The position numbers were made by a program, and so were the translations under genes. From a virus, in the IMG/VR virus record IMGVR_UViG_3300033512_000218, positions 1-64,000 of that record: a stretch of DNA of 64,000 nt. One strand, written 5' to 3'. The notes beneath the pieces are model-generated. The model made no database searches. It was not told where the DNA came from and saw only the letters and a program-made list of their open reading frames with translations. Of the stretch, positions 16,431-57,882 are shown one piece after another (positions within the stretch are counted from its first letter, which is position 1; the number at the start of each line of letters is the position of its first letter).

Positions 16431-16496
16431 TTTAACATTTATTAACACTAATTAATTTGTATTCTGTTAATAAATAGTTTATCTTTGTAATATAAT
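16431..16496 (+). promoter_or_regulatory. conserved early promoter repeat
   Basis: TTTAACATTTATTAACACTAATTAATTTGTATT...TATCTTTGTAATATAAT. Confidence 0.85.
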
Positions 16497-34698: not shown

Positions 34699-37600
34699 AT
34701 GAGTGAATTTTTAAGACCAGATGAAATATTAAATAATGTTTATCAAAATGGAGGAATTAATACATTTCTTCGTCCAGATGAAATATTAAATCTTGTATAT
34801 TCAGAATCAGAAAATGCTTTAGCTGTTAATATAATCGGTGGAGGTGGAACATCTAATTTATCTGTATTTGATACAGTTAGTTCCGCAGAAAGTACCCAAA
34901 CAAATTCATTAATATATGTTAAAGAAACTGATACATTTTATAAATATGAACTAAATGGTTCATCTTATATAGTAAATGATACATCAATTTTAAATACATT
35001 AAATGCTGGAAATACACGTTACATAGGTGTTTCAGGTAAATATACAGAAATATTATCAATTGAACAATTATCAACTAAAGAATTAACAGGTATTCCCACT
35101 CAGGAATTATCTAAATTTACAATAAATTATAATCCTACAAATAGAGTATTAACTTTAACTCGTATATCAGATTATACATTCTTTGTTCAAGGAAAACAAT
35201 TTACAAAAAATTCAACTATTATTATGCCTGCTCATAATAATACAACAGGATTGTATTATTATTATTTTGATACTGACGGAGTACTAAAAATGTCGTTATC
35301 AATGCCAGATGTATTTAATTCAGTTGCTTTTGTAACATATATTTATTATAATGCAGATTTAATTGATGGTTTTGCTGGTGATGAAAGACATGGAGTTATA
35401 ATGGATGGAGATACTCATAAACTATTACATTATACATTTGGAACTCAATATAAAACAGGATTAAATATAGATGGCTATACATTACAATCTGATTCTATTT
35501 TAGATACAGTGTATAATATAGAAGAAGGAACTATTTACGATGAAGATATTCAATTAACAATACCAGAATTAACAACTGATTATACTATATTTTATAAAAA
35601 CGGTATATTAGGAGATTGGTATTGGAATGATGCTCTATCTTTACCGTATTCAATTTCTAATGATAATATTCAATATAATGAATATACAGGAGTAACATGG
35701 CAATTAACAGAATTAAATGAAAATAAATTTTTTAATTCATATGTATGTGCAACTGATATTATTGACACAAGATTTAAAATTGTTATTGTTATAGGACAAT
35801 ATTTATATAATACACAAACCGAAGCAGAATCTCGTAGTTTTGCTGATTTGGATTTAACTAAATTCCCATTCACTGAAACACTTCCTATTTATCAAATAGT
35901 ACATAAATACGATACAACTTATTCAACAACAACAGGTAAAAGTAGATTTGAAACAGTTATACAACTTTTTAATAATAGAAAAATAGTTAATAATAATTGG
36001 TCAATTGACAAAATTAAAAAATATGTTGATAATAAAAGAGACCCAAAAATAATAAATGTAGCTAAAAATGGAGGACAATTTACAATTATTAACGAAGCAT
36101 TAAATTCCATTACAGATAATTCAATGATAAATCCTTATGTAATAAAAGTTGGAACAGGAATTTATATTGAAGATTCTATTATAATGAAAGACTATGTTTC
36201 AATTATAGGTTCTGGAGAACAAATTACTATTATACAAGCATTAAATACTACTCAAACAATATTTACAGGAGCAACAAATTGTGAATTATCATCTATGAAT
36301 ATAACAGGTGCAACTGGTTCTGGTGGAATTTGTATAAAAGTAAATAATTTAGCTTCTACTAATCCATTTAGAATGAGTAATATTTATTTCGGCTCAAATG
36401 AAACTCAATTAAATGTAACATCTACAACTGGAATTACAATATGTACACTGAAAAATAGTTATATTGGAAGTTCTTCTATTTTTACAAATGGATTTAAAGT
36501 AGATTCTATAAATGCTTCACAACCATCATTATTAGTTGTAGAAAACTTTTCATACTTAGATATTATTGCTCCATTTTTAACAACTTCATTATTTAATGCT
36601 GATGGAATAGGTGCTCAATTAGTATTATCAAGTGTTCTAACAAGAAGTTCAGGAAATACAGGAACAGCCATGTTAATTGAAAATGGTGCTTCATTAAGAA
36701 TACTTTCTGGTACATTTAGAGGATTTGCAAATGGAATACATTGTCCTGCTACAGGTACAGGACAAACAATAATAGCAAATGCAATTAATTTAGAATGTTT
36801 TTCAAAAGATGTATTAATAGAAAATGCAAATACAATAGGAAATTTAACGGGTTATACATCATATAATAAAACAAGTATAAACGATAATTGTTCCTTCTTT
36901 ATAATAAATAAAGATTTAAAAGTTATATCTGTTGCTAAAAGAGGAGGTGACTTTACTTCAATTGCTTTGGCATTAAATGCAATAACTGATTCAACTGCAA
37001 CAAATAGATATAAAGTAGATATTGGTCCTGGAATATTTATCGAACCAGAATTAACAATTCCTTCATACGTATCTTTAGTAGGTAGTTCAATAAATACAAC
37101 TGTTATTGAACCTGATACAAATGACCACAATGTTATAAATATGAATGAAATGACAGAAATTTCATTTTTAACTATTGAAAATGCAGGTGTCGGTTATTCA
37201 GCTGTATCATCAATTAATAGTGGTAATTTTACTCAACTACATAAAATATCAATATATAATTCTGATTATGGAGTTTATTTTAAATCCACAACAATTGATT
37301 CTCAATTATATTTAGAATATGTTGATATAAATGGAATTTATTCTGAAGCTATAACTTGTATATCTGAAAATGGATTTGAATCATATATAAATACAGAAAA
37401 TACATACACATTTCCAGACAATTTAAACATTGCATCAAATCAAGTATTAGTGGATGGTACAAATGCTATAATGAGAGTAGGAAATGCTGGTGTTTCAAAT
37501 GTAATTGGTAATGGAGGTATTGGATTTTTAGTTACAAATGGAGCTTCTTTATTTTTAAAAGGTAGTAGTGTATCAAATTGTTCAAAAGGTATTTATTTAG

Positions 37601-40600
37601 ATACTAATGGAATAAATCCATTTATACGAATGACAGGATTAACATTTAATGATAATACTATTAATTTTGATATATCAAATACAACGGCAAGTGGTGAATA
37701 TACAGGATATACAGAATATACTAAAAAATCAATTAATTCATCAAATAGTTTCTTTATAACAAATAAAGATAGTAATATTATTACAGTTGCTAAAAAAGGT
37801 GGAGATTTTGATTCCATAACAAATGCAATAAATTCCATAACAGATGCAACAGATATAAATCAATATATTATATCAATTGGACCCGGTTCTTTTATAGAAG
37901 ATACAATTCAAATGAAAGAATATATATCTTTATCTGGTAGTGGATATGAAACAATTATAGAACCGTCTGATTCAAATAATCATATTATATTAGGGCAAGA
38001 CCATTCACAAATAAGTTATATTACTGTAAACGGATGCACTAATAATTCCGCTATTTATTATTCAGCTAATTTGTCAAGTCCAAATGATTATTTTGTAATT
38101 GAACAATGCCTTTTTGGAAATAATTCGACACAAATAGAAATATACTCTGATGAAAATCCTACAATCATATACGCTAAATCTTGTGAATTAGGGGGCAATT
38201 TCCAATTTGATACATTTGCACATATTCATAATAATCCTACACATAATGCCATTGCATCATTAAGAATGTTTCAATTAGGTTCTCCAGGAGGAGTAGTTGC
38301 ACCTTATCCAAATCCTTTTATTTTATGTGAAGGTATAAATGCTGATTTTAGTGTTAATAGTTGCGGTTTAATAGGCGGAGGTACGGGTAATTGTATTCAA
38401 GTAAGAAATGGGTCACAAATAAGATTAAGTTCTGTTCAAATTATTAATTTTGGTACAGGTATATTATGTGAAAATATTGGAACTGCTCCATTGATAAATG
38501 CGACTGCTGTCACATTTGAAAATTGTATAACGGATATAAATATTGACCATCCTGGAACAAATGGTTCAATAAGTTGTAGTGCTGATAACTCAAAAGTATT
38601 TATTGATGAAAATTCCACAATAGGAATACAATATAATGAAAATTCAAATGATTTAATAGGAACAGTTACTGTTGGAGATATATATCAAGGAACACGACAT
38701 GATAGATTATTAAATTTATCCAAATTAACAACAAATTCATCCACATTGGGATTATATAGTGGAGGAACATTAGATGTGAGTTATTCAGGTATAGATATTA
38801 TTGTTAATGAAGGTGTTGGATTTTTACTTAACCCAACTGATTTTTACATTAAAGAAGTTAATTGGATTACAACAGAATTAGCCATACCAGATAATAATGA
38901 ATCATATATTTATATTGATACAAATTCTGATATACTATATTCATCTTCACTTGTTGATTTAGAGGAATATATTGTTTTAGGGCGTGTGTATAAAAACAAT
39001 TCAAATATTATTTTTATAGAGGAAACTCCAGTTAAAATAAATCATTATTCAAATGAAAATGAAGAATATATTAGAGATATAGTTGGTTCTATTTACAGCT
39101 CGGGTTCAATTGTATCAGAAAATATATCCGATAGAAAATTAGATATTACTTCTGGTTCTTACTATTATGGTACAAATAATTATTTACCTTCGGGAGGAAC
39201 AAATATAACATTTTTACATTTATATCATAATTCAGGAACATGGGATTATGTTTATACTGATACAATAAATAATACTCAATATGATAATGGAACTAATTTA
39301 GTTAATTTAACTGCATCTTATTATTCAAAACACTCATTATATATATCAAGTGAAGGATTAAATGAAAATTATTTTGTTATACATTCACAATTAGAATATG
39401 AAACATTACTTGAAGCACAAAACGGCACAATACCTACAACTCCTACTTGGATAAAAAACGGAATAACATTAATTGCATCAATAATTGTACAACAAGGAAC
39501 AAGTTCAATAATAGAAATTATAGATTTACGTCCTGTTTTTAATGGAAGTGCAAGCTCTTCATCTGAGGCAGTTACAAGTCATAGTGATTTAACAAATTTA
39601 GATTCTGATGATCATTTACAATATTTGTTAGCGACAGGTAGTAGAGTATTATCTGGAAATTTAGATTTAGGGAATAATAATATTACTAATGTAAATTTAG
39701 TCGATGGTATTGATGTAACTTCCCATAAATCAAGACACGATTTTAATGGGAGCGACCCATTGTTATCTGATATAGCATTACCAATTAGTGATTCAACAAA
39801 TTTAGAAGGAGTTAGTAATACAAAAGTTTCAAGATATGACCATGTCCATGCACACGGAAATAGAATAGGTGGAACATTACACGCAGCCGTAACAACTTCT
39901 GTAAATGGATTTATGATTGCTTCTGATAAAGTATTATTAAATAAATTAGCAAATACAAGAATACCAATATCAGATACTAATTATACTATAACATCAGCAA
40001 CGGATGTAACAGTATCGTATGTAACATTAACAGCGAATAGAACTATTACATTACCCGTTGCAACTAATTTAAATCAAACAATTATTATTTTAGATGAATT
40101 AGGAAATTGTTCTGTTGATAAATATTTGAAAATAGTACCAAATGGTTCAGATACTTTAAATGGATTTGTATATTCATTAATTGTAACTTCTTATAGTAGA
40201 GTTAGATTAGTTAGTAATGGTATATCTAATTGGTCATTTACAACAGAAGATATTCAATACTCAACAGGTACAATTAAAAAACCTACATATACAGATAATA
40301 ATAATGGTTCTATTACTATCGGAAATGAAGGTATTTATAATTTACATAAAGATACAACAGGATTAGATAATATATATCCTTATATTGTTAATGGAAATTC
40401 ATTTGTTTTAACTGATTTAACAACAAATTATATTGTTATTAATTATAATTCAGGTACACATGTTATGCAAAAAATAACAGATGTTAGTTTAATAAATGAA
40501 ACTACAATAATACCTATTTATACAATTTATAGAGAAGGTTTAAGATTACATACAATTGATTGGGATAGTTTAGGATTGAGTCTTGTAAATAAAATACATC

Positions 40601-41748
40601 AAAGTATAGTAAAAACACAAAGATACAGATTAGAATATGGATTGGGATTATCAGAAGCATCAACTCGAAAAGTTGTTGTTGAAGATGGAAAGGTTTGGAT
40701 AGGTGCAAATGGGTTTTTATTAGATTCATTTAATTCAAATACAAATGAAATGTTTTTCTTATTTCATTCAAGTAATGTTTGGGATACTCCTTCATTAGAA
40801 ACAGACTATAATAATACCCAATATGATGATGGTACTGATTTAAAAACATTGGATGATGGTAAATATGCAGTAAATTTTATTTATAGAGGTATTGAAGTTG
40901 AAAATGAATGTTATTTTGTTTTAGGACAAGGCAATTATACATTATTAGAAGCTCAAAATAGTATTCCTCCTGCTAATCTTCCTCATATTATTACATCACA
41001 TACAATGTTAATTGGTAGAATTATTGTAAAAAAGGGAGAAAATACAGCGACACAAATAGATAGTATATTTGAAGCGGCTTTTAGATTATCACCAGGTATT
41101 AACCATAATGATACAAGTGGAATTCAAAATGCTCCAAATAGTGTAGTAGGAGAACATTATCATTTATCATCTGCTCAAGCAACTGTTGTAAGTAACACAT
41201 CTAATACAAATACAGGAGATGAAACAGCGGCAAGAATAGGAGCAATAGTAAATGGAGCAACTAATTATACAACTCCATTAGATGCAGATAAGATTGGAAT
41301 TTGGGATACTTTAAATAGTTTATATAAAGCAGTAACTTGGACTAATATAAAAGCAACATTAAAAACTTATTTTGATACTTTATATCGTAAATTAAGTTGG
41401 AATTATAGAGCATCTACAAATGCAAATAATATAACAACTGATAGAGATTTAAGTGATGGAAACATTGCAACAAATATATCTCCTTTTATAATACCAGTAA
41501 CAAGTTCCTTAAAAAGAATATCAGGATTTGCAAATACAACCTCATCAGCCACATCATGGGTGATTGATATTTTAAAAAACGGAACTTCAGTTGTAACATT
41601 GATAGTTACTTCTCCAACTCAAAAAGCAGTATCAACTGATTTAAATGTTAGTTTTTCTGCATTAGATGAGGTAAGAATAAGAGTAACAACGATAACAGGT
41701 GGAAATATTGACAGTCCTTCTGTAGATATTTACTTTTTAGAAAATTAA
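34699..41748 (+). CDS. giant tail fibre/tailspike-like protein with three beta-helix-like modules
   Basis: 2349 aa; three I.VAK.GG.F..I..A.N.ITD...N.Y.I.IG.G.F.E repeats; repeated TQYD.GT.L..L...Y...EAQ modules. Confidence 0.7.
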   Translation: MSEFLRPDEILNNVYQNGGINTFLRPDEILNLVYSESENALAVNIIGGGGTSNLSVFDTVSSAESTQTNSLIYVKETDTFYKYELNGSSYIVNDTSILNTLNAGNTRYIGVSGKYTEILSIEQLSTKELTGIPTQELSKFTINYNPTNRVLTLTRISDYTFFVQGKQFTKNSTIIMPAHNNTTGLYYYYFDTDGVLKMSLSMPDVFNSVAFVTYIYYNADLIDGFAGDERHGVIMDGDTHKLLHYTFGTQYKTGLNIDGYTLQSDSILDTVYNIEEGTIYDEDIQLTIPELTTDYTIFYKNGILGDWYWNDALSLPYSISNDNIQYNEYTGVTWQLTELNENKFFNSYVCATDIIDTRFKIVIVIGQYLYNTQTEAESRSFADLDLTKFPFTETLPIYQIVHKYDTTYSTTTGKSRFETVIQLFNNRKIVNNNWSIDKIKKYVDNKRDPKIINVAKNGGQFTIINEALNSITDNSMINPYVIKVGTGIYIEDSIIMKDYVSIIGSGEQITIIQALNTTQTIFTGATNCELSSMNITGATGSGGICIKVNNLASTNPFRMSNIYFGSNETQLNVTSTTGITICTLKNSYIGSSSIFTNGFKVDSINASQPSLLVVENFSYLDIIAPFLTTSLFNADGIGAQLVLSSVLTRSSGNTGTAMLIENGASLRILSGTFRGFANGIHCPATGTGQTIIANAINLECFSKDVLIENANTIGNLTGYTSYNKTSINDNCSFFIINKDLKVISVAKRGGDFTSIALALNAITDSTATNRYKVDIGPGIFIEPELTIPSYVSLVGSSINTTVIEPDTNDHNVINMNEMTEISFLTIENAGVGYSAVSSINSGNFTQLHKISIYNSDYGVYFKSTTIDSQLYLEYVDINGIYSEAITCISENGFESYINTENTYTFPDNLNIASNQVLVDGTNAIMRVGNAGVSNVIGNGGIGFLVTNGASLFLKGSSVSNCSKGIYLDTNGINPFIRMTGLTFNDNTINFDISNTTASGEYTGYTEYTKKSINSSNSFFITNKDSNIITVAKKGGDFDSITNAINSITDATDINQYIISIGPGSFIEDTIQMKEYISLSGSGYETIIEPSDSNNHIILGQDHSQISYITVNGCTNNSAIYYSANLSSPNDYFVIEQCLFGNNSTQIEIYSDENPTIIYAKSCELGGNFQFDTFAHIHNNPTHNAIASLRMFQLGSPGGVVAPYPNPFILCEGINADFSVNSCGLIGGGTGNCIQVRNGSQIRLSSVQIINFGTGILCENIGTAPLINATAVTFENCITDINIDHPGTNGSISCSADNSKVFIDENSTIGIQYNENSNDLIGTVTVGDIYQGTRHDRLLNLSKLTTNSSTLGLYSGGTLDVSYSGIDIIVNEGVGFLLNPTDFYIKEVNWITTELAIPDNNESYIYIDTNSDILYSSSLVDLEEYIVLGRVYKNNSNIIFIEETPVKINHYSNENEEYIRDIVGSIYSSGSIVSENISDRKLDITSGSYYYGTNNYLPSGGTNITFLHLYHNSGTWDYVYTDTINNTQYDNGTNLVNLTASYYSKHSLYISSEGLNENYFVIHSQLEYETLLEAQNGTIPTTPTWIKNGITLIASIIVQQGTSSIIEIIDLRPVFNGSASSSSEAVTSHSDLTNLDSDDHLQYLLATGSRVLSGNLDLGNNNITNVNLVDGIDVTSHKSRHDFNGSDPLLSDIALPISDSTNLEGVSNTKVSRYDHVHAHGNRIGGTLHAAVTTSVNGFMIASDKVLLNKLANTRIPISDTNYTITSATDVTVSYVTLTANRTITLPVATNLNQTIIILDELGNCSVDKYLKIVPNGSDTLNGFVYSLIVTSYSRVRLVSNGISNWSFTTEDIQYSTGTIKKPTYTDNNNGSITIGNEGIYNLHKDTTGLDNIYPYIVNGNSFVLTDLTTNYIVINYNSGTHVMQKITDVSLINETTIIPIYTIYREGLRLHTIDWDSLGLSLVNKIHQSIVKTQRYRLEYGLGLSEASTRKVVVEDGKVWIGANGFLLDSFNSNTNEMFFLFHSSNVWDTPSLETDYNNTQYDDGTDLKTLDDGKYAVNFIYRGIEVENECYFVLGQGNYTLLEAQNSIPPANLPHIITSHTMLIGRIIVKKGENTATQIDSIFEAAFRLSPGINHNDTSGIQNAPNSVVGEHYHLSSAQATVVSNTSNTNTGDETAARIGAIVNGATNYTTPLDADKIGIWDTLNSLYKAVTWTNIKATLKTYFDTLYRKLSWNYRASTNANNITTDRDLSDGNIATNISPFIIPVTSSLKRISGFANTTSSATSWVIDILKNGTSVVTLIVTSPTQKAVSTDLNVSFSALDEVRIRVTTITGGNIDSPSVDIYFLEN

Positions 41749-49476: not shown

Positions 49477-50418
49477 ATGATTAATACGATACTTCAACAA
49501 AATTCAATTGGTTTTTTATTGGCAGACGAAAACAAAAAAATTATATCATTAAATAAATATATAACTAATTTATTTAATATAAATAATTCTGAATTTATTG
49601 GAGCGGATGTTACTATTATGTTTAAAATAGATAAAAATAATCTACAAAAATTAAATATAATAGGATTTGTATCTTTTGATAGTTATGTAAATAATTATGA
49701 TAAATTAATAAATATTACAGTTATTAAAAATGACAAATTTTATTATGGTATTATATTGGATAAAACAAATGAAAATAATCTACATAATGAAATAATTAAA
49801 ATAAATAATTTATTTAAAAATAATATAAGTGAAAATGAAAGATATAAAACATTATTAAACAGTATAATTAATGCTTTGGCTCATAATTTTAGAACAAATA
49901 TTTATACTATAAAAAAATTATCAAATACTGATTCCATTAAATATTCAGATAATATTATTACTCTTATAGATGATATATTAAAATATTATAATGTATTTAA
50001 TCATGATGTATCAATATCAGATGTAAAATTAATTAACTTAATACATCCTAATACACTAATTGAAACAAATATAGATGATTTAATATATATAAAATCAGAT
50101 ACAGTATTATTAAATATTATATTTAATGAAATTATTGATAATGCTATAAAATTCGGTAATAACAATATAATAAAAATTATATATACTGATTTAGGATTTT
50201 ATCATAAAATAAGTATAAAAGATAATGGAATAGGATTTAATATAAAATATAAAAACGAAATATTTAAATTGTTTAGTAAATTAAATACAACTTTTACTGG
50301 TACAGGACTTGGATTAGCTATTGTAAAATTATGTATTGATAAACTAATAGGTAATATTAATGTAAACAGTCAAATAAATATAGGTAGTGAATTTATTATT
50401 TTACTTGATAAACAATAA
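49477..50418 (+). CDS. soluble sensor histidine kinase (PAS-like + HisKA + HATPase_c)
   Basis: H-box LAHNFRT, N-box IIDNAIKF, G1 DNGIG, F-box IFKLF, G2 GTGLGLAI. Confidence 0.88.
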   Translation: MINTILQQNSIGFLLADENKKIISLNKYITNLFNINNSEFIGADVTIMFKIDKNNLQKLNIIGFVSFDSYVNNYDKLINITVIKNDKFYYGIILDKTNENNLHNEIIKINNLFKNNISENERYKTLLNSIINALAHNFRTNIYTIKKLSNTDSIKYSDNIITLIDDILKYYNVFNHDVSISDVKLINLIHPNTLIETNIDDLIYIKSDTVLLNIIFNEIIDNAIKFGNNNIIKIIYTDLGFYHKISIKDNGIGFNIKYKNEIFKLFSKLNTTFTGTGLGLAIVKLCIDKLIGNINVNSQINIGSEFIILLDKQ

Positions 50419-51024: not shown

Positions 51025-51026
51025 AT

Positions 51027-51092
51027 TTTAACATTTATTAAGATAATTAAATTTGTATTTTTACTTTATTTATATTATCTTTATAATATAAT
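51027..51092 (+). promoter_or_regulatory. early promoter repeat upstream of cassette array
   Basis: consensus with TATCTTTA variant. Confidence 0.7.
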
Positions 51093-51210
51093 TTAAAATG
51101 AATATTAACCAACAACTGATATTAGGACAGAAACAATGGCTTATATTTGTTGTAAGCAAATAATCACTAAATTGTATGTTATGTACTTTTATCATAATAC
51201 ATTAATCAAA

Positions 51211-51447
51211 ATGGAAAATATAAAAATGAGTTTTAAAGATGCCCCTGTCGGTGCAAGATTTAAGTATCCAAATGATACAAGCGGAAATATTTGGGTTAAA
51301 ATTAATTCATATCCACAAAGTAGATTTGAAAGCGGATTAGGATTGATTTGTAAATGGGAAGGAAATATAAAAAGTTATCAATCTTTTTGCTCGTTTAGTG
51401 ATGAAAATAATGGAATTTCATTTGAAACTGAAATCGAGTTATTATAG
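51211..51447 (+). CDS. cassette 1 hypothetical protein
   Basis: MENIKMSFKDAPVGARF...; stop just before site 1. Confidence 0.65.
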   Translation: MENIKMSFKDAPVGARFKYPNDTSGNIWVKINSYPQSRFESGLGLICKWEGNIKSYQSFCSFSDENNGISFETEIELL

Positions 51448-51448
51448 T

Positions 51449-51581
51449 TGCTAACGGTTGCAAATAAACACAGTAAAAGATATGAAAGAACAAATTTTAG
51501 AAATAGCAGAAAAACTTAGATTAGAACTAATAACTGAATACGAAGCACAAAACCTTTTATTTGGTTTATTTAGTGTTATAC
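51449..51581. repeat. attC-like site 1
   Basis: TGCTAAC..aaataaac..agtaaaag / cttttatt..gtttattt..GTTATAC. Confidence 0.7.
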
Positions 51582-51691
51582 AACGAAGTGAACAGTTGGT
51601 TGCTTTTGTAAAATGGTTAGAAGCTAATTCAGACCACTCAATTGATAGAGGTTGGATAGAAGAATATATTGAAGCAACCAATTGTGTATAA
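51482..51691 (+). CDS. cassette 2 hypothetical protein (starts in hairpin loop)
   Basis: MKEQILEIAEK...; stop TAA lies inside GTATAAC. Confidence 0.7.
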   Translation: MKEQILEIAEKLRLELITEYEAQNLLFGLFSVIQRSEQLVAFVKWLEANSDHSIDRGWIEEYIEATNCV

Positions 51692-51807
51692 CGGCTGAGT
51701 ATTGGCGTTGTTGCCATCATAAACGATTATTAATAACACTAAATTATAAAATTATGACAAAAGTTTCAGAAAACCACGAAGGCAATAACGCTAATACTTT
51801 GTTAGCC
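51686..51807. repeat. attC-like site 2
   Basis: GTATAAC ggctg agtattggcgttgttgcc / ggcaataacgctaatact tt GTTAGCC (16/18 plus 2 G.T). Confidence 0.85.
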
Positions 51808-51978
51808 ACAGTTATTCCTCAATCAAAAGAAGAGTTGTTAGAATGTATTCAAAATTTGATGGGTGTATTTGACACACCAGTTTCAAGAAGAGCAATAAAG
51901 GGTGAATTTGCCGATGAAGTTCGTAAGATAGGTCGTCAAATTTTGGAAAGTAATGGTAAATCAATGTACGATATATAA
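51754..51978 (+). CDS. cassette 3 hypothetical protein (starts in hairpin loop)
   Basis: MTKVSENHEGNNANTLLATVIP... Confidence 0.7.
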   Translation: MTKVSENHEGNNANTLLATVIPQSKEELLECIQNLMGVFDTPVSRRAIKGEFADEVRKIGRQILESNGKSMYDI

Positions 51979-51982
51979 TTGT

Positions 51983-52074
51983 GGCTAACGTATCGTGTAT
52001 GAGCAGTGGCACTTGTACACACTTTCAAATTAGCTACAACGATTATGTGCCATTGCTTATACACGGTGTTAGTG
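51983..52074. repeat. attC-like site 3
   Basis: GGCTAAC gtat cgtgtatgagcagtggcac / gtgccattgcttatacacg gt GTTAGTG. Confidence 0.88.
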
Positions 52075-52109
52075 ACAGTACTTTTTTTAATAATCTAATA
52101 ATCAATTAT

Positions 52110-52664
52110 ATGAAAGCTGAAAAACAAATAATTTACGATGACGAAAATGCAGCCAGATTCGTTGAAAATATCAAAGGTTGGGTTGATATTAATAATCAAT
52201 TTTATGGGAATAATTCAGATTCTGAACATATGGCACGTTGGTCAAGTTGCACACATAAAAAATGTAAATGCGGAAAGCTAATAACTAAAGGATGGACGAA
52301 ATGCGATGAATGTAGAACTAACTCCGAAATTGAAAGATATAACCAACTTACATTTAAAGAATATAATGGTGATATAGTTTATTCACATTATGCTGACCGA
52401 TACTTTATGGATTCTGATGAAATAGAAGATTATTGCTCTGAGGAAGAAATTGAGACTAAAGATTTGAGGCTTGTATTTTGCGAACCAAATAAATTTAGCC
52501 AAATATATAGTGACTATTGGGAAGATGTATTGCAAGAAGATTCAGAAGGCGAATTACCTACGAAGTTACAAGAGGCTTTAGATAATTTAAATAAAATCAT
52601 TTCTGAAATGCCTCCAGCGAGTTATTGCCCAAGTAAAACACGAACTGAATATCGTAGCGTGTAG
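52110..52664 (+). CDS. cassette 4 hypothetical Cys-containing phage protein
   Basis: MKAEKQIIYDDENAA...EHMARWSSCTHKKCKCG...CDEC. Confidence 0.75.
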   Translation: MKAEKQIIYDDENAARFVENIKGWVDINNQFYGNNSDSEHMARWSSCTHKKCKCGKLITKGWTKCDECRTNSEIERYNQLTFKEYNGDIVYSHYADRYFMDSDEIEDYCSEEEIETKDLRLVFCEPNKFSQIYSDYWEDVLQEDSEGELPTKLQEALDNLNKIISEMPPASYCPSKTRTEYRSV

Positions 52665-52670
52665 TATTGG

Positions 52671-52765
52671 CACTAACGGTTGGGTGTATGAAACGTAACC
52701 TAACTACAAACTTTAGTATTAACCACTGAACTATAATAGGTTATGTTTTATACACCTTGTTATAT
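52671..52765. repeat. attC-like site 4
   Basis: CACTAAC ggttg ggtgtatgaaacgtaaccta / taggttatgttttatacacc tt GTTATAT. Confidence 0.88.
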
Positions 52766-52862
52766 GCAGTGCGGACTTATAGTGGAAATGTTGATACGAG
52801 AGATGAACCTTTTTGTTTTATTTTTTGTGCGGTGGGAAAGTAATTAACTTAATAACTAAAAT

Positions 52863-53435
52863 ATGAAATACGAAATAATATACGCTGATCCAGCTTGGGA
52901 ATACAATACAAAGGAATGTTTGGCTAAAACATCAATACTTAATGGAGAATTGAATACCCATTATAGCACAATGACATTGAAAGACTTAAAAGCATTAGAC
53001 GTGCAAAGTATTTCAAATAAAAATTGTATGCTGTTTTTGTGGGTTGTAAGCCCGATGTTAAAAGAAGGTATTGAAGTGATGGAAGCGTGGGGCTTTAAAT
53101 ATGCCACAATAGCTTTTATATGGCACAAGCAAAGAACAAACCCTGGACATTATACAATGAGTGAATGTGAAATTTGCTTGGTAGGGAAGCGTGGCACAAT
53201 ACCAACTCCAAGAGGAGCAAGGAATGTAAGGCAATTTTTATCTGAAATGCGAGGCAAACATTCTGCTAAACCTAATGAAATAAGAACGAGAATTGATACA
53301 ATGTTTCCAACTCAAAATAAAGTAGAATTATTTGCAAGGCAGAATGTTTTAGGATGGGATGCTTGGGGTAACGAATGCGAAAACTCTATAACTATTGGAG
53401 GGGAGGAAAAAAAAATTAAAACAAATTGCGTATAA
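52863..53435 (+). CDS. cassette 5: MT-A70 family adenine methyltransferase
   Basis: IIYADPAW, HYSTM, LFLW, WGFKY, HSAKP, ELFAR, GWDAWGNE; stop inside GTATAAC. Confidence 0.92.
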   Translation: MKYEIIYADPAWEYNTKECLAKTSILNGELNTHYSTMTLKDLKALDVQSISNKNCMLFLWVVSPMLKEGIEVMEAWGFKYATIAFIWHKQRTNPGHYTMSECEICLVGKRGTIPTPRGARNVRQFLSEMRGKHSAKPNEIRTRIDTMFPTQNKVELFARQNVLGWDAWGNECENSITIGGEEKKIKTNCV

Positions 53436-53500
53436 CGAATGGTGCTATGAGCAGGTTTGTGTTGCGCCTGCGGCAAACTTGCTTATAGCACGTGTTACTG
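53430..53500. repeat. attC-like site 5
   Basis: GTATAAC gaatg gtgctatgagcaggtttg / caaacttgcttatagcac gt GTTACTG. Confidence 0.88.
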
Positions 53501-53568
53501 GCTGGCTCGGTTAATTAACCACTAAACTCAAATCGAAGCATTAAACAAAAGAATTTAAAAAAAGAGGG

Positions 53569-54330
53569 ATGGAAAAAAATAAAATATATAACGAAAATTG
53601 CCTTGAAACAATGGCTAAAATGCCTGATAAGTTTGTGGACTTAACGGTTACTTCACCGCCTTATAATATGCGAACACGTATAAGAAACGGACAATATACC
53701 ACAAGAGAGAAAAGCGAACATTTTAGCAAAAAGTATAAGTATTTTGACGATGCTTTACCAATAAATGATTTTTACGAATTTCATAGCAGCGTATTGACTG
53801 AACTATTGAGAGTATCAAAAATTGTTTGCTACAACTTTCAAATAGTGACAGGAAGCAAAGAAGCGTTTTTTAAAATCATTGGCGACTTTAACAAGGATAT
53901 TAAGGATATTATCATTTGGGATAAAGGAAGCGGACAGCCTGCAATGCACGGAATGGTTTTAAATAGCTGCTATGAAATGGTATTGATATTAGAAGATGAT
54001 AAAAGAGCAGGGAGAGCAATACAAAATGCTAAATTCAAAAGAGGTGAAATGAATAACATTTTGAGAATCGGCAGAGGCAAAAAAGTATCTGATGTTCACG
54101 GTGCAATTTTTCCAGAACAACTACCATTTGATTTGATAAACGCTTTTTCAGAAAAAGAAGCATTGATTTACGACCCTTTTATGGGAAGTGGAACTACTGG
54201 ATTAGTAGCAAGTAAATTAGGTAGAAACTATATTGGAAGTGAAATAACAGAAGAATATTGTCAAATAGCTGAAAATCGTATTAAAGAGTGCGGTGGGCTT
54301 TTTTTGAACTCTTTTGAACCGAAATGTTAA
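53569..54330 (+). CDS. cassette 6: N4-cytosine/N6-adenine DNA methyltransferase (beta class)
   Basis: VTSPPYN, H.A.FP, YDPFMGSGTT, GRNYIGSEI. Confidence 0.92.
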   Translation: MEKNKIYNENCLETMAKMPDKFVDLTVTSPPYNMRTRIRNGQYTTREKSEHFSKKYKYFDDALPINDFYEFHSSVLTELLRVSKIVCYNFQIVTGSKEAFFKIIGDFNKDIKDIIIWDKGSGQPAMHGMVLNSCYEMVLILEDDKRAGRAIQNAKFKRGEMNNILRIGRGKKVSDVHGAIFPEQLPFDLINAFSEKEALIYDPFMGSGTTGLVASKLGRNYIGSEITEEYCQIAENRIKECGGLFLNSFEPKC

Positions 54331-54355
54331 ATCGCAGCACAAATGTAGAGCTTGC

Positions 54356-54450
54356 CAGTAACGTTGGTGCTATGAGCAGGTTTGCCTTGCAGAAATGTTC
54401 AAATTTAGCACTAATGTTATTGGCAAACTTGCTTATAGCACGTGTTATGT
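54356..54450. repeat. attC-like site 6
   Basis: CAGTAAC gttg gtgctatgagcaggtttgcc / ggcaaacttgcttatagcac gt GTTATGT; arms same as site 5. Confidence 0.88.
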
Positions 54451-54483
54451 GCCGTTTTTATTCACGAATTTAAAATTAGTAAG

Positions 54484-54996
54484 ATGAAAAAATATGATGT
54501 AATTTATGCCGACCCTGCTTGGCGATATGACTTTAGCAAAAGTAATAGCAGGGAAATTGAAAACCAATACCCAACAATGACCATAGATGAAATATGTGGA
54601 TTAAAAGTACCTGCAAAAGATAACGCTGTGCTTTATATGTGGGCAACTGCACCAAAGCTATTGGAAGCAATAAAAGTATTAAATGCGTGGGGCTTTGAAT
54701 ATAAAACACAAGCAGTTTGGGATAAGGAAATTATCGGAATGGGTTATTGGTTCAGAGGACAACACGAAATATTAATAGTTGCTACAAAGGGTAAATTTTC
54801 ACCACCCGAACAACCATTAAGAATAAGTAGTGTGATTAAGGAAAGGAGAACCAAGCATAGCAAGAAACCGATTTATGTAAGAGATATGATTGAAAAATGG
54901 TTTCCCGATTCTGAACGATTAGAAATGTTTGCCCGAACAAGCGGTGAAAATTGGGATGTTTGGGGAAATGAAGTTGAGAGTAGTGTCGCTCTTTAA
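54484..54996 (+). CDS. cassette 7: MT-A70 family adenine methyltransferase
   Basis: VIYADPAW, YPTM, LYMWAT, WGFEYKT, HSKKP, EMFAR, WGNE. Confidence 0.92.
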   Translation: MKKYDVIYADPAWRYDFSKSNSREIENQYPTMTIDEICGLKVPAKDNAVLYMWATAPKLLEAIKVLNAWGFEYKTQAVWDKEIIGMGYWFRGQHEILIVATKGKFSPPEQPLRISSVIKERRTKHSKKPIYVRDMIEKWFPDSERLEMFARTSGENWDVWGNEVESSVAL

Positions 54997-55002
54997 AATG
55001 GC

Positions 55003-55096
55003 ACATAACGGTTGCGTGTATATTTCAGGTTTGCTTGTACGAACTTTGAATTATGCACAAATGCTGATGCAAACTTGAATATACACGTTGTTAGTA
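55003..55096. repeat. attC-like site 7
   Basis: ACATAAC ggttg cgtgtatatttcaggtttgc / gcaaacttgaatatacacg tt GTTAGTA. Confidence 0.85.
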
Positions 55097-55167
55097 ACAG
55101 TAGCATACGACAATGTTAATTTGAAACGCTACACTTTTTATTTTAAATTTTTAAGGAGGGATTTTTT

Positions 55168-56148
55168 ATGAATATTTTGAGTTTATTTGATGGTATAAGT
55201 TGTGGGCAAATAGCGTTGGAACGTGCTAATATTAAAGTTGATAAATATTACGCAAGTGAAATTGATGCCAATGCTATTAAAGTTACGAAACACAACTACC
55301 CAAATACAATACATATTGGAAGTGTGAATGATATTGATTTTAGTAAATACCAAGATATTGATATTTTAATTGGTGGTAGCCCCTGCCAAGACTTATCACG
55401 TTGTAATTTAGAAAATAAGGGATTAGAAGGAGAACGATCTAAATTATTTTTTAAATACATAGAATCGTTAAAAATTACTAAGCCTAAATATTATGTATTT
55501 GAAAATGTTGGAAGTATGACCAATGAGAATATGGAAACCATAAGTGAATATTTCGGACATAAACCAATTTGTATAAACTCAAATTTAGTTTCTCCACAAA
55601 GCAGAGAAAGATATTATTGGACAAATATACCAAACGTAATACCACCAATAGATAAAAACATTTTGGTTAAGAATATAATTGAAAAAACCGTACCCGAAAA
55701 GTATTACTTAAAAATGGATTATGCTTATGTACCAAAGGAAACAAAACATAATTCAAAAAGCGGATTACAATTTGTTTGTGGTATTATTAGCAAAAAGAAA
55801 TGGCTTGATGATGGGAAAGGAAATTCACGTAATTTTTCACAAGGAAATAGAGTTTATTCGATAAATGGAAAATCTTGTACTATAAATGCAAATGCTGGAG
55901 GATTAGGTGGTAAAAGTGGATTATATTATTTAGAAGATGGAAAGGAATTTAGCAAAAGCAATATAAGAAGATTAACACCATTAGAAACAGAACGATTACA
56001 AACAATACCTGACAACTATACCGATATAATAAACGAAACAAATAGGTACAAATGTATTGGCAATGGTTGGACGGTAGATGTAATTGCACATATTCTTTCT
56101 TTTATAAATGGTTTTGAAAAAACCACAGATCGTGGGCAAAAAATTTAA
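55168..56148 (+). CDS. cassette 8: DNA cytosine-C5 methyltransferase
   Basis: SLFDGISCG, GGSPCQ, FENV, QSRERYYW, GNGW. Confidence 0.93.
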   Translation: MNILSLFDGISCGQIALERANIKVDKYYASEIDANAIKVTKHNYPNTIHIGSVNDIDFSKYQDIDILIGGSPCQDLSRCNLENKGLEGERSKLFFKYIESLKITKPKYYVFENVGSMTNENMETISEYFGHKPICINSNLVSPQSRERYYWTNIPNVIPPIDKNILVKNIIEKTVPEKYYLKMDYAYVPKETKHNSKSGLQFVCGIISKKKWLDDGKGNSRNFSQGNRVYSINGKSCTINANAGGLGGKSGLYYLEDGKEFSKSNIRRLTPLETERLQTIPDNYTDIINETNRYKCIGNGWTVDVIAHILSFINGFEKTTDRGQKI

Positions 56149-56196
56149 AATAAAAAATTATTATGCACGAACCTTGCTACGAAGAAAGGCTATTGT

Positions 56197-56241
56197 TACT
56201 AACTATTATATATAAACAAGTGTATTTAATTTATTGATTAT
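56197..56241 (-). other. array-terminal site (candidate attI equivalent)
   Basis: TAACTATTATATATAAA-N10-TAAtTTATTGAtTAT, repeated with identical spacing at 57841-57882. Confidence 0.6.
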
Positions 56242-56306
56242 GAATACAAAAGACAAAACAAATCTTGAAATTTTCGAAGATATTTCTTGAGTTGAAAATT
56301 ATAAAT

Positions 56307-56388: not shown

Positions 56389-56820
56389 ATGAAACATTTT
56401 ATTACATCATTAAGAGCAACCTCAAAAGAAGAAACATTAAATCGTTTTAAAGAAACAAATGATTATAATGAAAATAAAGTATATTCTGCTAATCTCAATT
56501 GGTATACACAGGATTGGGATATATACGAATATGATTTAAAAGAAGGTGATTATATTGCATTTGAATATGAATATGAAATAGGTGACCCTGAAATAATAGT
56601 TGATAATATTTCATTTGTATATGAAGATAGAGTAATCGTACACTTTTTATATGGTTATAAATCTGAAACTTGTACTATTTTAAAAAAAGATATTTTAGCA
56701 ATAGGAAATAAACTAAATGGAACAACAAAATTATTAGGTTGGACTGGCTTATTTGATATTGTAAATGAAACAGATTTTTTAATTAAAAATATAGAATATG
56801 AAACAAAATCTAATAGTTAA
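56389..56820 (+). CDS. hypothetical protein
   Basis: ORF after promoter repeat. Confidence 0.65.
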   Translation: MKHFITSLRATSKEETLNRFKETNDYNENKVYSANLNWYTQDWDIYEYDLKEGDYIAFEYEYEIGDPEIIVDNISFVYEDRVIVHFLYGYKSETCTILKKDILAIGNKLNGTTKLLGWTGLFDIVNETDFLIKNIEYETKSNS

Positions 56821-57010
56821 AAAAGGACAAATAATTAAAACCGAGAGAAATGAAATTTTCAAAGTTAAATTGGAAAATGATAATATTATTACCTGTACAA
56901 TATCAGGTAAAATGAGATTAAATAAAATTCATTTAATTGAAGGTGATTTCGTAACGGTTGAATTATCTCCTTATGATATGACACGAGGTAGAATTAGTTG
57001 GAAAGGATAA
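56798..57010 (+). CDS. infA: translation initiation factor IF-1
   Basis: FKVKLEN...ISGKMR.N.I.L..GD.V.VELSPYD.TRGRI. Confidence 0.93.
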   Translation: MKQNLIVKKGQIIKTERNEIFKVKLENDNIITCTISGKMRLNKIHLIEGDFVTVELSPYDMTRGRISWKG

Positions 57011-57396: not shown

Positions 57397-57489
57397 TTAT
57401 AGCAGTTTGCAATATGAAACGGTTGCATTATAAAACGTTTCAATTTTAGTAATAGCTTGACAGCAACAGTTTTATATTGCTTGTTAGGT
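57397..57489. repeat. attC-like site of solo cassette (left core AGC instead of AAC)
   Basis: TTATAGC agttt gcaatatgaaacggttgc / gcaacagttttatattgc tt GTTAGGT. Confidence 0.78.
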
Positions 57490-57504
57490 ATAATAATTTT
57501 TATT

Positions 57505-57843
57505 ATGGGAATGTACACACAATTTATTATCGAATGCAAGTTAAAAGAAGAAACTCCTTACAAAATTATCGAATGTTTAGAAGATATGATAAACGACATT
57601 GATAATGATTTATTTACTTATAATCGAAATCCTTTAAACAATTATTGTGAAAGCAATAAATATTTTAAATCATTTAAAGATTTAGTGTTAAAAGCACATG
57701 GGGATATAAAAAACTATCAGACTGATATTGATAGGTTTACTGATTTTATAAAACCTTATGTGGAAATAGGGTTTTTAGAAAATAATTCTTTTGCTAAATC
57801 ATTATACGAAGGATATGATGAGTGGACGTATTATTGTACCTAA
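57505..57843 (+). CDS. solo cassette hypothetical protein
   Basis: MGMYTQFII...IKNY..DI..F.DFIKPY; bracketed by GTTAGGTATAATAA / TTATTGTACCTAAC; stop inside the AAC core. Confidence 0.75.
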   Translation: MGMYTQFIIECKLKEETPYKIIECLEDMINDIDNDLFTYNRNPLNNYCESNKYFKSFKDLVLKAHGDIKNYQTDIDRFTDFIKPYVEIGFLENNSFAKSLYEGYDEWTYYCT

Positions 57844-57882
57844 CTATTATATATAAAAATCTCAACCTAAGTTATTGACTAT
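57838..57882 (-). other. second array-terminal site (candidate attI equivalent)
   Basis: 17/17 and 13/15 identity to the two boxes at 56200-56241. Confidence 0.6.

Follow-up and report, generated by a model that had tools for sequence, protein, structure and literature searches.

Positions 52759 to 56203 of the DNA analyzed here encode four consecutive predicted DNA methyltransferases, which we designate MT1 through MT4. The DNA is the first 64 kb (64,000 nucleotides, hereafter the window) of the IMG/VR virus record IMGVR_UViG_3300033512_000218, a linear sequence of 139,610 bp that is estimated to be 60% complete. All four genes and the sites around them are on the + strand. Hairpin-forming sites that begin with TAAC and end with GTTA separate the genes from one another, and a terminal site of a different kind closes the series after the last gene. 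The initial annotation had reported four cassettes with methyltransferases of three classes, and all were present as stated, both by Pfam match and by motif. The span that it gave was also exact, running from the GTTA of the hairpin that opens the MT1 cassette (hairpin s3) to the TAAC end of the terminal site that closes the MT4 cassette. We interpret the four genes as orphan DNA methyltransferases that are packaged singly as mobile cassettes, in an integron-like array carried by a large phage, and put the probability of this interpretation at roughly 0.7.

MT1 (open reading frame [ORF] 52863-53435) and MT3 (54484-54996, or starting at 54442 if an upstream GTG is used) matched MT-A70 (PF05063) with 83.6 bits (2e-23) and 81.5 bits (9e-23), respectively. 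Both covered profile positions 1-172 of 172 and both fell in PHROGs family 359 (phrog_359), with 36% identity between the two proteins. MT2 (53569-54330) matched the beta-class family N6_N4_Mtase (PF01555) with 115 bits (6e-33) and PHROGs family 67, and MT4 (55168-56148) matched the C5 DNA_methylase family (PF00145) with 146 bits (2e-42), PHROGs family 116, and TIGR00675 with 139 bits (cut-off 100.65). All four ORFs scored above the Pfam gathering cut-offs (23.9 bits for MT-A70, 26.7 for PF01555, and 22 for PF00145), each match spanned essentially the whole profile, and none of the ORFs contained an internal stop. MT2 had SPPY at residue 29 and FMGSG at residue 204, which is the beta-class order with motif IV before motif I (FxGxG). 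MT4 had FDGISCG (motif I), PCQ at 72 (motif IV), ENV at 112 (motif VI), and a C-terminal GNG at 298.

The solved structures closest to MT1 were the ciliate DNA N6-methyladenine (6mA) enzyme MTA1 and then METTL3. The structural matches of MT2 were an N4-cytosine methyltransferase (PDB 8s9m; 6e-14 over the full length), MboIIA, and CcrM; a large homologue search bearing on its target base (N4-cytosine versus N6-adenine) yielded generic automatic names only. MT4 matched DNMT3 in the PDB over its N-terminal half and HhaI and HaeIII over its full length. No nuclease family was matched in Pfam, PHROGs, or NCBIfam by the methyltransferases, by the other ORFs of the array (c0 to c3), or by the flanking ORFs, in agreement with the earlier statement that none of the enzymes has a partner endonuclease. 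All four enzymes are orphan methyltransferases. Hia5-type non-specific adenine methyltransferases, considered as possible relatives of MT-A70, were dropped from the comparison; Drozdz et al. (PMC3299994) found that these enzymes carry DPPY and FxGxG, and they are not described there as MT-A70.

Both MT-A70 proteins of the array carry DPAW rather than DPPW (residue 9 of MT1 and residue 10 of MT3, numbered from the ATG at 54484), as the initial annotation had pointed out, but this is not special to them. Motif IV was DPPW in 109 and DPAW in 23 of 139 phage homologues, and DPAW is a recurrent natural minority variant. The backbone MT-A70 of the same phage, at genome positions 81011-81562, has the canonical DPPW, and a backbone N6_N4 enzyme with DLPY and a guanine-cytosine (GC) content of 24% lies at genome positions 72262-73041; neither gene has hairpins or inverted-repeat flanks. 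A strong Shine-Dalgarno sequence (TAAGGAGGG) lies 8 nt 5' of the ATG of MT4 (55145-55170), in contrast to MT1 and MT3, and the homologues of MT4 in two other loci (L180 and L181) have one as well. The Shine-Dalgarno of MT4 may be a hint of an origin outside Bacteroidota phages.

The boundaries of the cassettes were examined with a purpose-written scan for TAAC-stem-loop-stem-GTTA, with composition-preserving shuffles of the 139.6-kb genome as the control. Seven sites were found, all on the gene strand and all within 51452-55093, compared to 0.6 in the shuffles. The hairpins were 65-127 nt in length and folded into long imperfect stems. The first, s0 (51452-51578), was weak, with 15 Watson-Crick pairs, 1 G.T pair, and 2 mismatches, and contained the start of ORF c1 at 51482; s1 (51689-51804) contained the start of ORF c2 at 51754. 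These were followed by s2 (51986-52071), s3 (52674-52762), s4 (53433-53497), s5 (54359-54447), and s6 (55006-55093). Between s2 and s3 lay ORF c3 (52110-52664), which encodes 184 aa and matched phrog_11053, a family of unknown function. ORF c0 (51136-51447), which encodes 103 aa with no family match at a GC fraction of 0.27, was located 5' of the first hairpin.

The MT1 cassette (52759-53436) begins with GTTATATGC and ends with GCGTATAAC; the corresponding ends are GTTACTGGC and GCCAGTAAC for MT2 (53494-54362), GTTATGTGC and GCACATAAC for MT3 (54444-55009), and GTTAGTAAC and GTTACTAAC for MT4 (55090-56203), the last pair being a perfect 9-nt inverted repeat. The six bases 3' of each GTTA were the reverse complement of the six bases 5' of the next TAAC at 5.29 of 6 positions, versus 2.16 of 6 for non-adjacent pairs, with MT4 and the terminal site counted as one such pairing. 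The right flank of each site thus complements the left flank of the next, and therefore every gene carries an inverted repeat of its own, 9-16 nt long (GTTA plus 5-12 nt at one end, and the complement plus TAAC at the other). No hairpin is present 3' of MT4. The inverted-repeat partner of that gene, GTTACTAAC, instead lies in the terminal, attI-like site at 56192-56217 (ATTGTTAC-TAAC-TATTATATATAAAC), and it is at this conserved TAAC-TATTATAT site that the array closes. Further copies of the terminal motif are found at 57841 and at genome position 74846. The copy at 57841 (TAAC-TATTATATATAAAAA) ends a second, one-cassette mini-array at 57400-57882, which consists of a hairpin remnant at approximately 57400 and a cassette at 57483-57844 (ORF 57457-57843, 128 aa).

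Related arrays were used to identify the recombinase that belongs with these sites. In the array that holds a 97%-identical MT2 (L067), a gene for a 280-aa tyrosine recombinase (L067:11370-12212) that matched PF00589 at 1e-36 begins about 55 nt 3' of the terminal site. Searches of viral contigs, first with this protein and subsequently with its aligned relatives, gave 81 loci (L252-L332). An N5-TAAC-TAYTATATGT site was present 50-60 nt 5' of the recombinase in most of the 81 loci with enough upstream sequence, and about 50 related phage contigs have the terminal site about 55 nt 5' of a recombinase of 270-280 aa. The R-K-HxxR-H-Y set of residues was present. Against the integron-integrase model TIGR02249 the recombinase reached 170 bits in two pieces (cut-off 265), the match splitting where IntI has its extra domain. 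The best match was XerA with 192 bits, also below the cut-off of that model, and both XerA and XerD scored above the integron integrase; we therefore regard the protein as Xer-like and not as an IntI. No cultured relative closer than approximately 38% identity was found in 50,697 GenBank phage records.

In the window, a 16-codon ORF at 56240-56290 (MNTKDKTNLEIFEDIS, then a stop) sits where the relatives have the recombinase gene. Judging from the position of that gene in L067 and L252-L332, and from a remnant after genome position 74846, this ORF is probably the decayed N-terminus of a recombinase. Position 74846 is where a third array ends, and it is followed by another apparently decayed recombinase start. 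The initial annotation had presented the array as swappable; the record has no intact recombinase, and cassette swapping here would therefore need one supplied in trans.

That the cassettes are discrete and movable units was borne out by comparison of arrays. The MT2 cassette recurs in four other arrays (L067, L068, L069, and L070) at 90-94% DNA identity with different neighbours on both sides, and the homology stops at about GTTA and TAAC. It is the last cassette before the terminal site in L068 and L069, and in L069 the cassette upstream of it is a Mom-family gene (L069:5679-6434). The flanks of MT2 change in a compensatory manner, from GTTA-CTGGC/GCCAG-TAAC in the window to GTTA-TAAGC/GCTTA-TAAC in the other arrays. 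In L001, a copy of MT1 with 94% DNA identity lies between different hairpins that are shorter, and homologues of MT1 in five further arrays (L003-L007) had 76-79% protein identity. Relatives of MT3 in L105 and L112 adjoin hairpins. At the place of AAG-GAA in the window, the L001 copy of MT1 (L001:617-1168) has a TAA in frame, and it is a decaying cassette or reflects a sequencing error.

Enrichment of methyltransferases in the cassettes of other arrays, which the initial annotation had proposed looking for, was strong, at about 25-fold, and other DNA-modifying genes were enriched as well. The survey was anchored on the recombinase and not on the methyltransferases, and walking along the inverted repeats recovered 1-6 cassettes per locus, for a total of 104 unique cassettes with 103 longest ORFs that formed 99 clusters at 50% identity. 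At least 17 of the 103 ORFs encode DNA methyltransferases by Pfam (N6_N4_Mtase, 8; C5 DNA_methylase, 6; Dam [PF05869], 3), and PHROGs agreed. Other cargo included PAPS-reductase-like proteins (4), RNA-repair HAD domains (2), and a TET-associated glycosyltransferase (TAGT; 1). Only 15 Pfam families were matched among the 103 ORFs, with no nuclease family among them, and the pool is mostly unannotated. For comparison, 150 ORFs were sampled at random outside the arrays of these loci, and the families listed for them included no methyltransferase. When one and the same local method was applied to both sets, methyltransferases accounted for 13 of 104 cassettes versus 5 of 912 backbone ORFs (odds ratio 26, Fisher p = 3.7e-10). 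The 81 loci include the MT2-derived anchor (L252), and the result was not materially affected by dropping it.

A run of four methyltransferases is unlikely to arise by chance even at the cassette rate of about 17% (0.17^4, or about 8e-4; the backbone rate is about 0.5%). Three methyltransferase cassettes in a row were found in L286, and Mom-family genes neighbour methyltransferase cassettes in L069 and in L333 (phage P12002L, 37305-38015). The four genes in the window do occupy the four positions nearest the terminal site, as had been noted, but related arrays showed no general preference of methyltransferases for the position next to that site (7 of 12 versus 45 of 104 overall, p = 0.36; none significant).

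The proposed promoter of the array is a promoter-like element at 51026-51098 on the + strand (TTAACATTTATTAA, then TTTG, then TATCTTTAT), 5' of ORF c0. An early promoter had been claimed at 51027, and the element found there belongs to a motif with 29 strict copies across the 139.6-kb record, all of them located 15-40 nt 5' of an ATG. The motif has a TTTG box at -33 and a TAnnTTTG box at -7. A sequence of events can be proposed. A recombinase would excise and insert cassettes at the TAAC/GTTA cores, and the phage promoter at 51026 would transcribe the array. The enzymes would then methylate replicating phage DNA at several different motifs, with N6-adenine modified by the two MT-A70 proteins, probably N4-cytosine by the SPPY enzyme MT2, and C5-cytosine by MT4, and progeny could reach the next host already shielded against several restriction systems. 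The local copy of the recombinase gene appears to have decayed in this phage, which would leave the array either frozen or reliant on a recombinase in trans.

Several observations count against this interpretation. No tyrosine recombinase (PF00589) was found in the 139.6-kb record, which is an estimated 60% of the genome. A hairpin scan around the close homologues of MT4 (72-85%) found no arrays, and two GC-richer phages that lack an array (L071 and L072) have MT2 at 93% DNA identity. Comparison of MT1 and MT2 with their homologues in other arrays showed conservation of neither the hairpin before the gene nor the one after it; as neither hairpin travels, the unit may be a gene with its downstream hairpin, as in integrons, or a hairpin with its gene. 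The record encodes six methyltransferases, two of which are backbone genes and not cassette-borne. The relatives of MT-A70 include RNA methyltransferases (METTL3), and we infer from sequence that the four enzymes methylate DNA and protect it from restriction. Of the 29 promoter copies, the one before the array departs furthest from the canonical sequence and is alone in having TTTA, A in place of G, in the -7 box.

The rival that survives best, though we judge it unlikely, is that the array is a true integron fragment (CALIN), made up of classical attC cassettes that came from a bacterial integron and are moved by the IntI of the host. The sites have the layout of attC (TAAC/GTTA cores, an imperfect palindrome, and a variable loop), and the record has seven hairpin sites and no integrase. 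As in classical integrons, the cassettes hold one gene each in one orientation, the sites are folded imperfect palindromes with AAC/GTT cores, each cassette has both halves of its own outer repeat, the cargo is highly diverse, and a tyrosine recombinase is encoded beside a special array-end site. There is also precedent in phages. Qi et al. (2023; PMC9892861) used attC finders on 10,705 phage genomes and reported 17 attC clusters without integrase, with five cassette-borne methyltransferases, and proposed that such cassettes help phages overcome host restriction. In the same study, two attC sites and two methyltransferases of Polaribacter phage P12002L were treated as integron components, with no dedicated recombinase or terminal site named, and P12002L attC2 recombined with attI1 under IntI1. 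The other site, attC1, was called attC by HattCI and was the sole site that IntI1 did not recombine.

We found that P12002L carries the hairpin family described here. Its attC1 is a member of this family, located between the methyltransferase genes gp35 and gp36, and is the very site on which IntI1 failed, whereas we placed attC2, on which it succeeded, at the end of that array; two further hairpins flank the methyltransferase gene gp54, beside a Mom-like gene. The recombinase of the related arrays also argues against a fragment moved by IntI, because it lacks the IntI hallmark and falls below the cut-off for that family. In addition, classical integrons have attI and a divergent intI at the 5' end, whereas here the attI-like site and the recombinase are 3' of the array and in the same orientation as the cassettes. 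Classical attC sites have bulged extrahelical bases on the bottom strand. In contrast, these hairpins have no bulged bases, and among 100 unique hairpins (window plus L001-L333) G.T pairs with G on the 5' arm outnumbered T.G pairs by 194 to 31, with one fixed stem position holding such a G.T pair in 88 of the 100. With G.T pairs fixed in this way, the gene strand (or its RNA) pairs fully and the other strand has A.C mismatches. The carrier also differs, being a phage, and the cargo is biased to counter-defence by DNA modification and not to resistance or defence genes. The platform is integron-like in its working but departs from classical integrons in three defining features, namely IntI, the position of attI, and the bulged bases. 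The initial annotation had spoken of a counter-defence integron, but the platform is not a classical one.

A second rival accepts the cassettes as real and gives the enzymes a role other than evasion of restriction, such as regulation of phage genes, packaging signals, methylation of RNA by the MT-A70 pair, or interference with methylation-dependent processes of the host. METTL3 among the relatives of MT-A70 and the two methyltransferases already in the phage backbone are both compatible with such a role. However, cassette pools elsewhere carry Mom, the TET-associated glycosyltransferase, and Dam, all of which are DNA modification functions linked to restriction evasion, and the best structural relative of MT1 is a DNA 6mA enzyme. 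The presence of several enzymes of different classes together is a prediction of multi-system evasion, and we consider the rival improbable. Just as improbable is an ordinary accessory ('moron') cluster in which the methyltransferases were gathered by illegitimate or homologous recombination and the hairpins are terminators, processing sites, or stabilisers of RNA, for although the hairpins pair better on the transcribed strand (G.U-compatible positions) and the same methyltransferase families are common in phages outside arrays, the cassettes have inverted repeats of their own that change in compensation between homologous cassettes, the terminal site is conserved and tied to one recombinase clade in about 50 contigs, and the hairpins are not followed by T runs (2 terminator-like sites found versus 2.3 expected). 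Scans inside the array for sigma-70-type promoters and intrinsic terminators likewise showed no enrichment, and Rfam, searched at gathering thresholds across the entire window, gave no match.

The interpretation of the locus as mobile orphan methyltransferase cassettes is to be placed beside earlier work. Qi et al. (2023; PMC9892861) had already put forward the idea of counter-restriction cassettes, and the system is not a new category. Like P12002L, a virulent phage with a CALIN, the phage studied here has a probable Bacteroidota host, orphan methyltransferases as cargo, and the same proposed benefit against restriction. Unlike in that report, the array studied here comprises seven hairpins and a terminal site and has four methyltransferases in succession, and comparative analysis adds an Xer-like partner and a quantified enrichment. 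We found no published description of the Xer-like recombinase, of the terminal site, or of the methyltransferase enrichment. Orphan phage methyltransferases without a nuclease are taken to protect DNA from restriction, according to Murphy et al. (2013) as cited in PMC9892861. Those of the array resemble them in being solitary and without a nuclease, and several per genome are common in large phages. The usual orphan methyltransferases are fixed backbone genes, whereas these are single cassettes bounded by sites and exchanged between arrays.

On a broader scale, it is fairly probable, though less so than the interpretation of the locus itself, that Bacteroidota phages own a gene-capture platform, composed of an Xer-like recombinase, a 3' terminal site, and TAAC...GTTA hairpin joints, whose cargo is specialised in counter-defence (methyltransferases of all classes, Mom, glycosyltransferase, PAPS-reductase-like, and RNA-repair genes). 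Bacterial integrons have recently been described as stores of anti-phage defence systems, and the platform would be the phage-side mirror of these, with the run of four methyltransferases as one snapshot. If the enzymes are active, the array would be a modular toolkit for countering several restriction systems simultaneously, open to re-stocking cassette by cassette, and this could explain how Bacteroidota phages keep up with the rapid turnover of restriction-modification systems in their hosts. With methyltransferases in about 17% of cassettes versus about 0.5% of backbone genes, an anecdote of 2023 becomes a measurable property of a class of arrays. Because most of the cassette pool is unannotated, it is a promising hunting ground for new anti-defence genes. 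The recombinase and its sites are a candidate gene-capture tool.

The TTTG and TAnnTTTG boxes of the promoter-like element are what we take to be the Bacteroidota type of promoter, and in genome collections the close relatives of the array recombinase were almost all in Bacteroidota bins. For these two reasons a Bacteroidota host is likely, although not proven. The record as a whole has a GC content of 22%, and 51.4-56.2 kb is its GC-richest island, with 29-36% in each cassette.

The repeated element, 70 nt long, contains an inverted repeat (AACATTTATTAAC and GTTAATAAATGTT) around the TTTG box, followed by TATCTTTGT and TATAAT, and its sequence resembles that of a phage promoter regulated through an operator. 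Copies in the window were located at 16432, 17759, 22058, 28164, 29208, 51028, 56308, and 57899 on the + strand and at 2075, 9133, 25028, 33154, 34041, and 34399 on the - strand. Upstream of the array, the + strand carries an ORF of 2349 aa (34699-41748) and a gene for a 313-aa protein with a histidine-kinase/GHKL ATPase domain (49477-50418; PF02518, 5e-16). Just 3' of the array, also on the + strand, is a homologue of translation initiation factor IF-1 (56798-57010; TIGR00008, 6e-25, above the cut-off).

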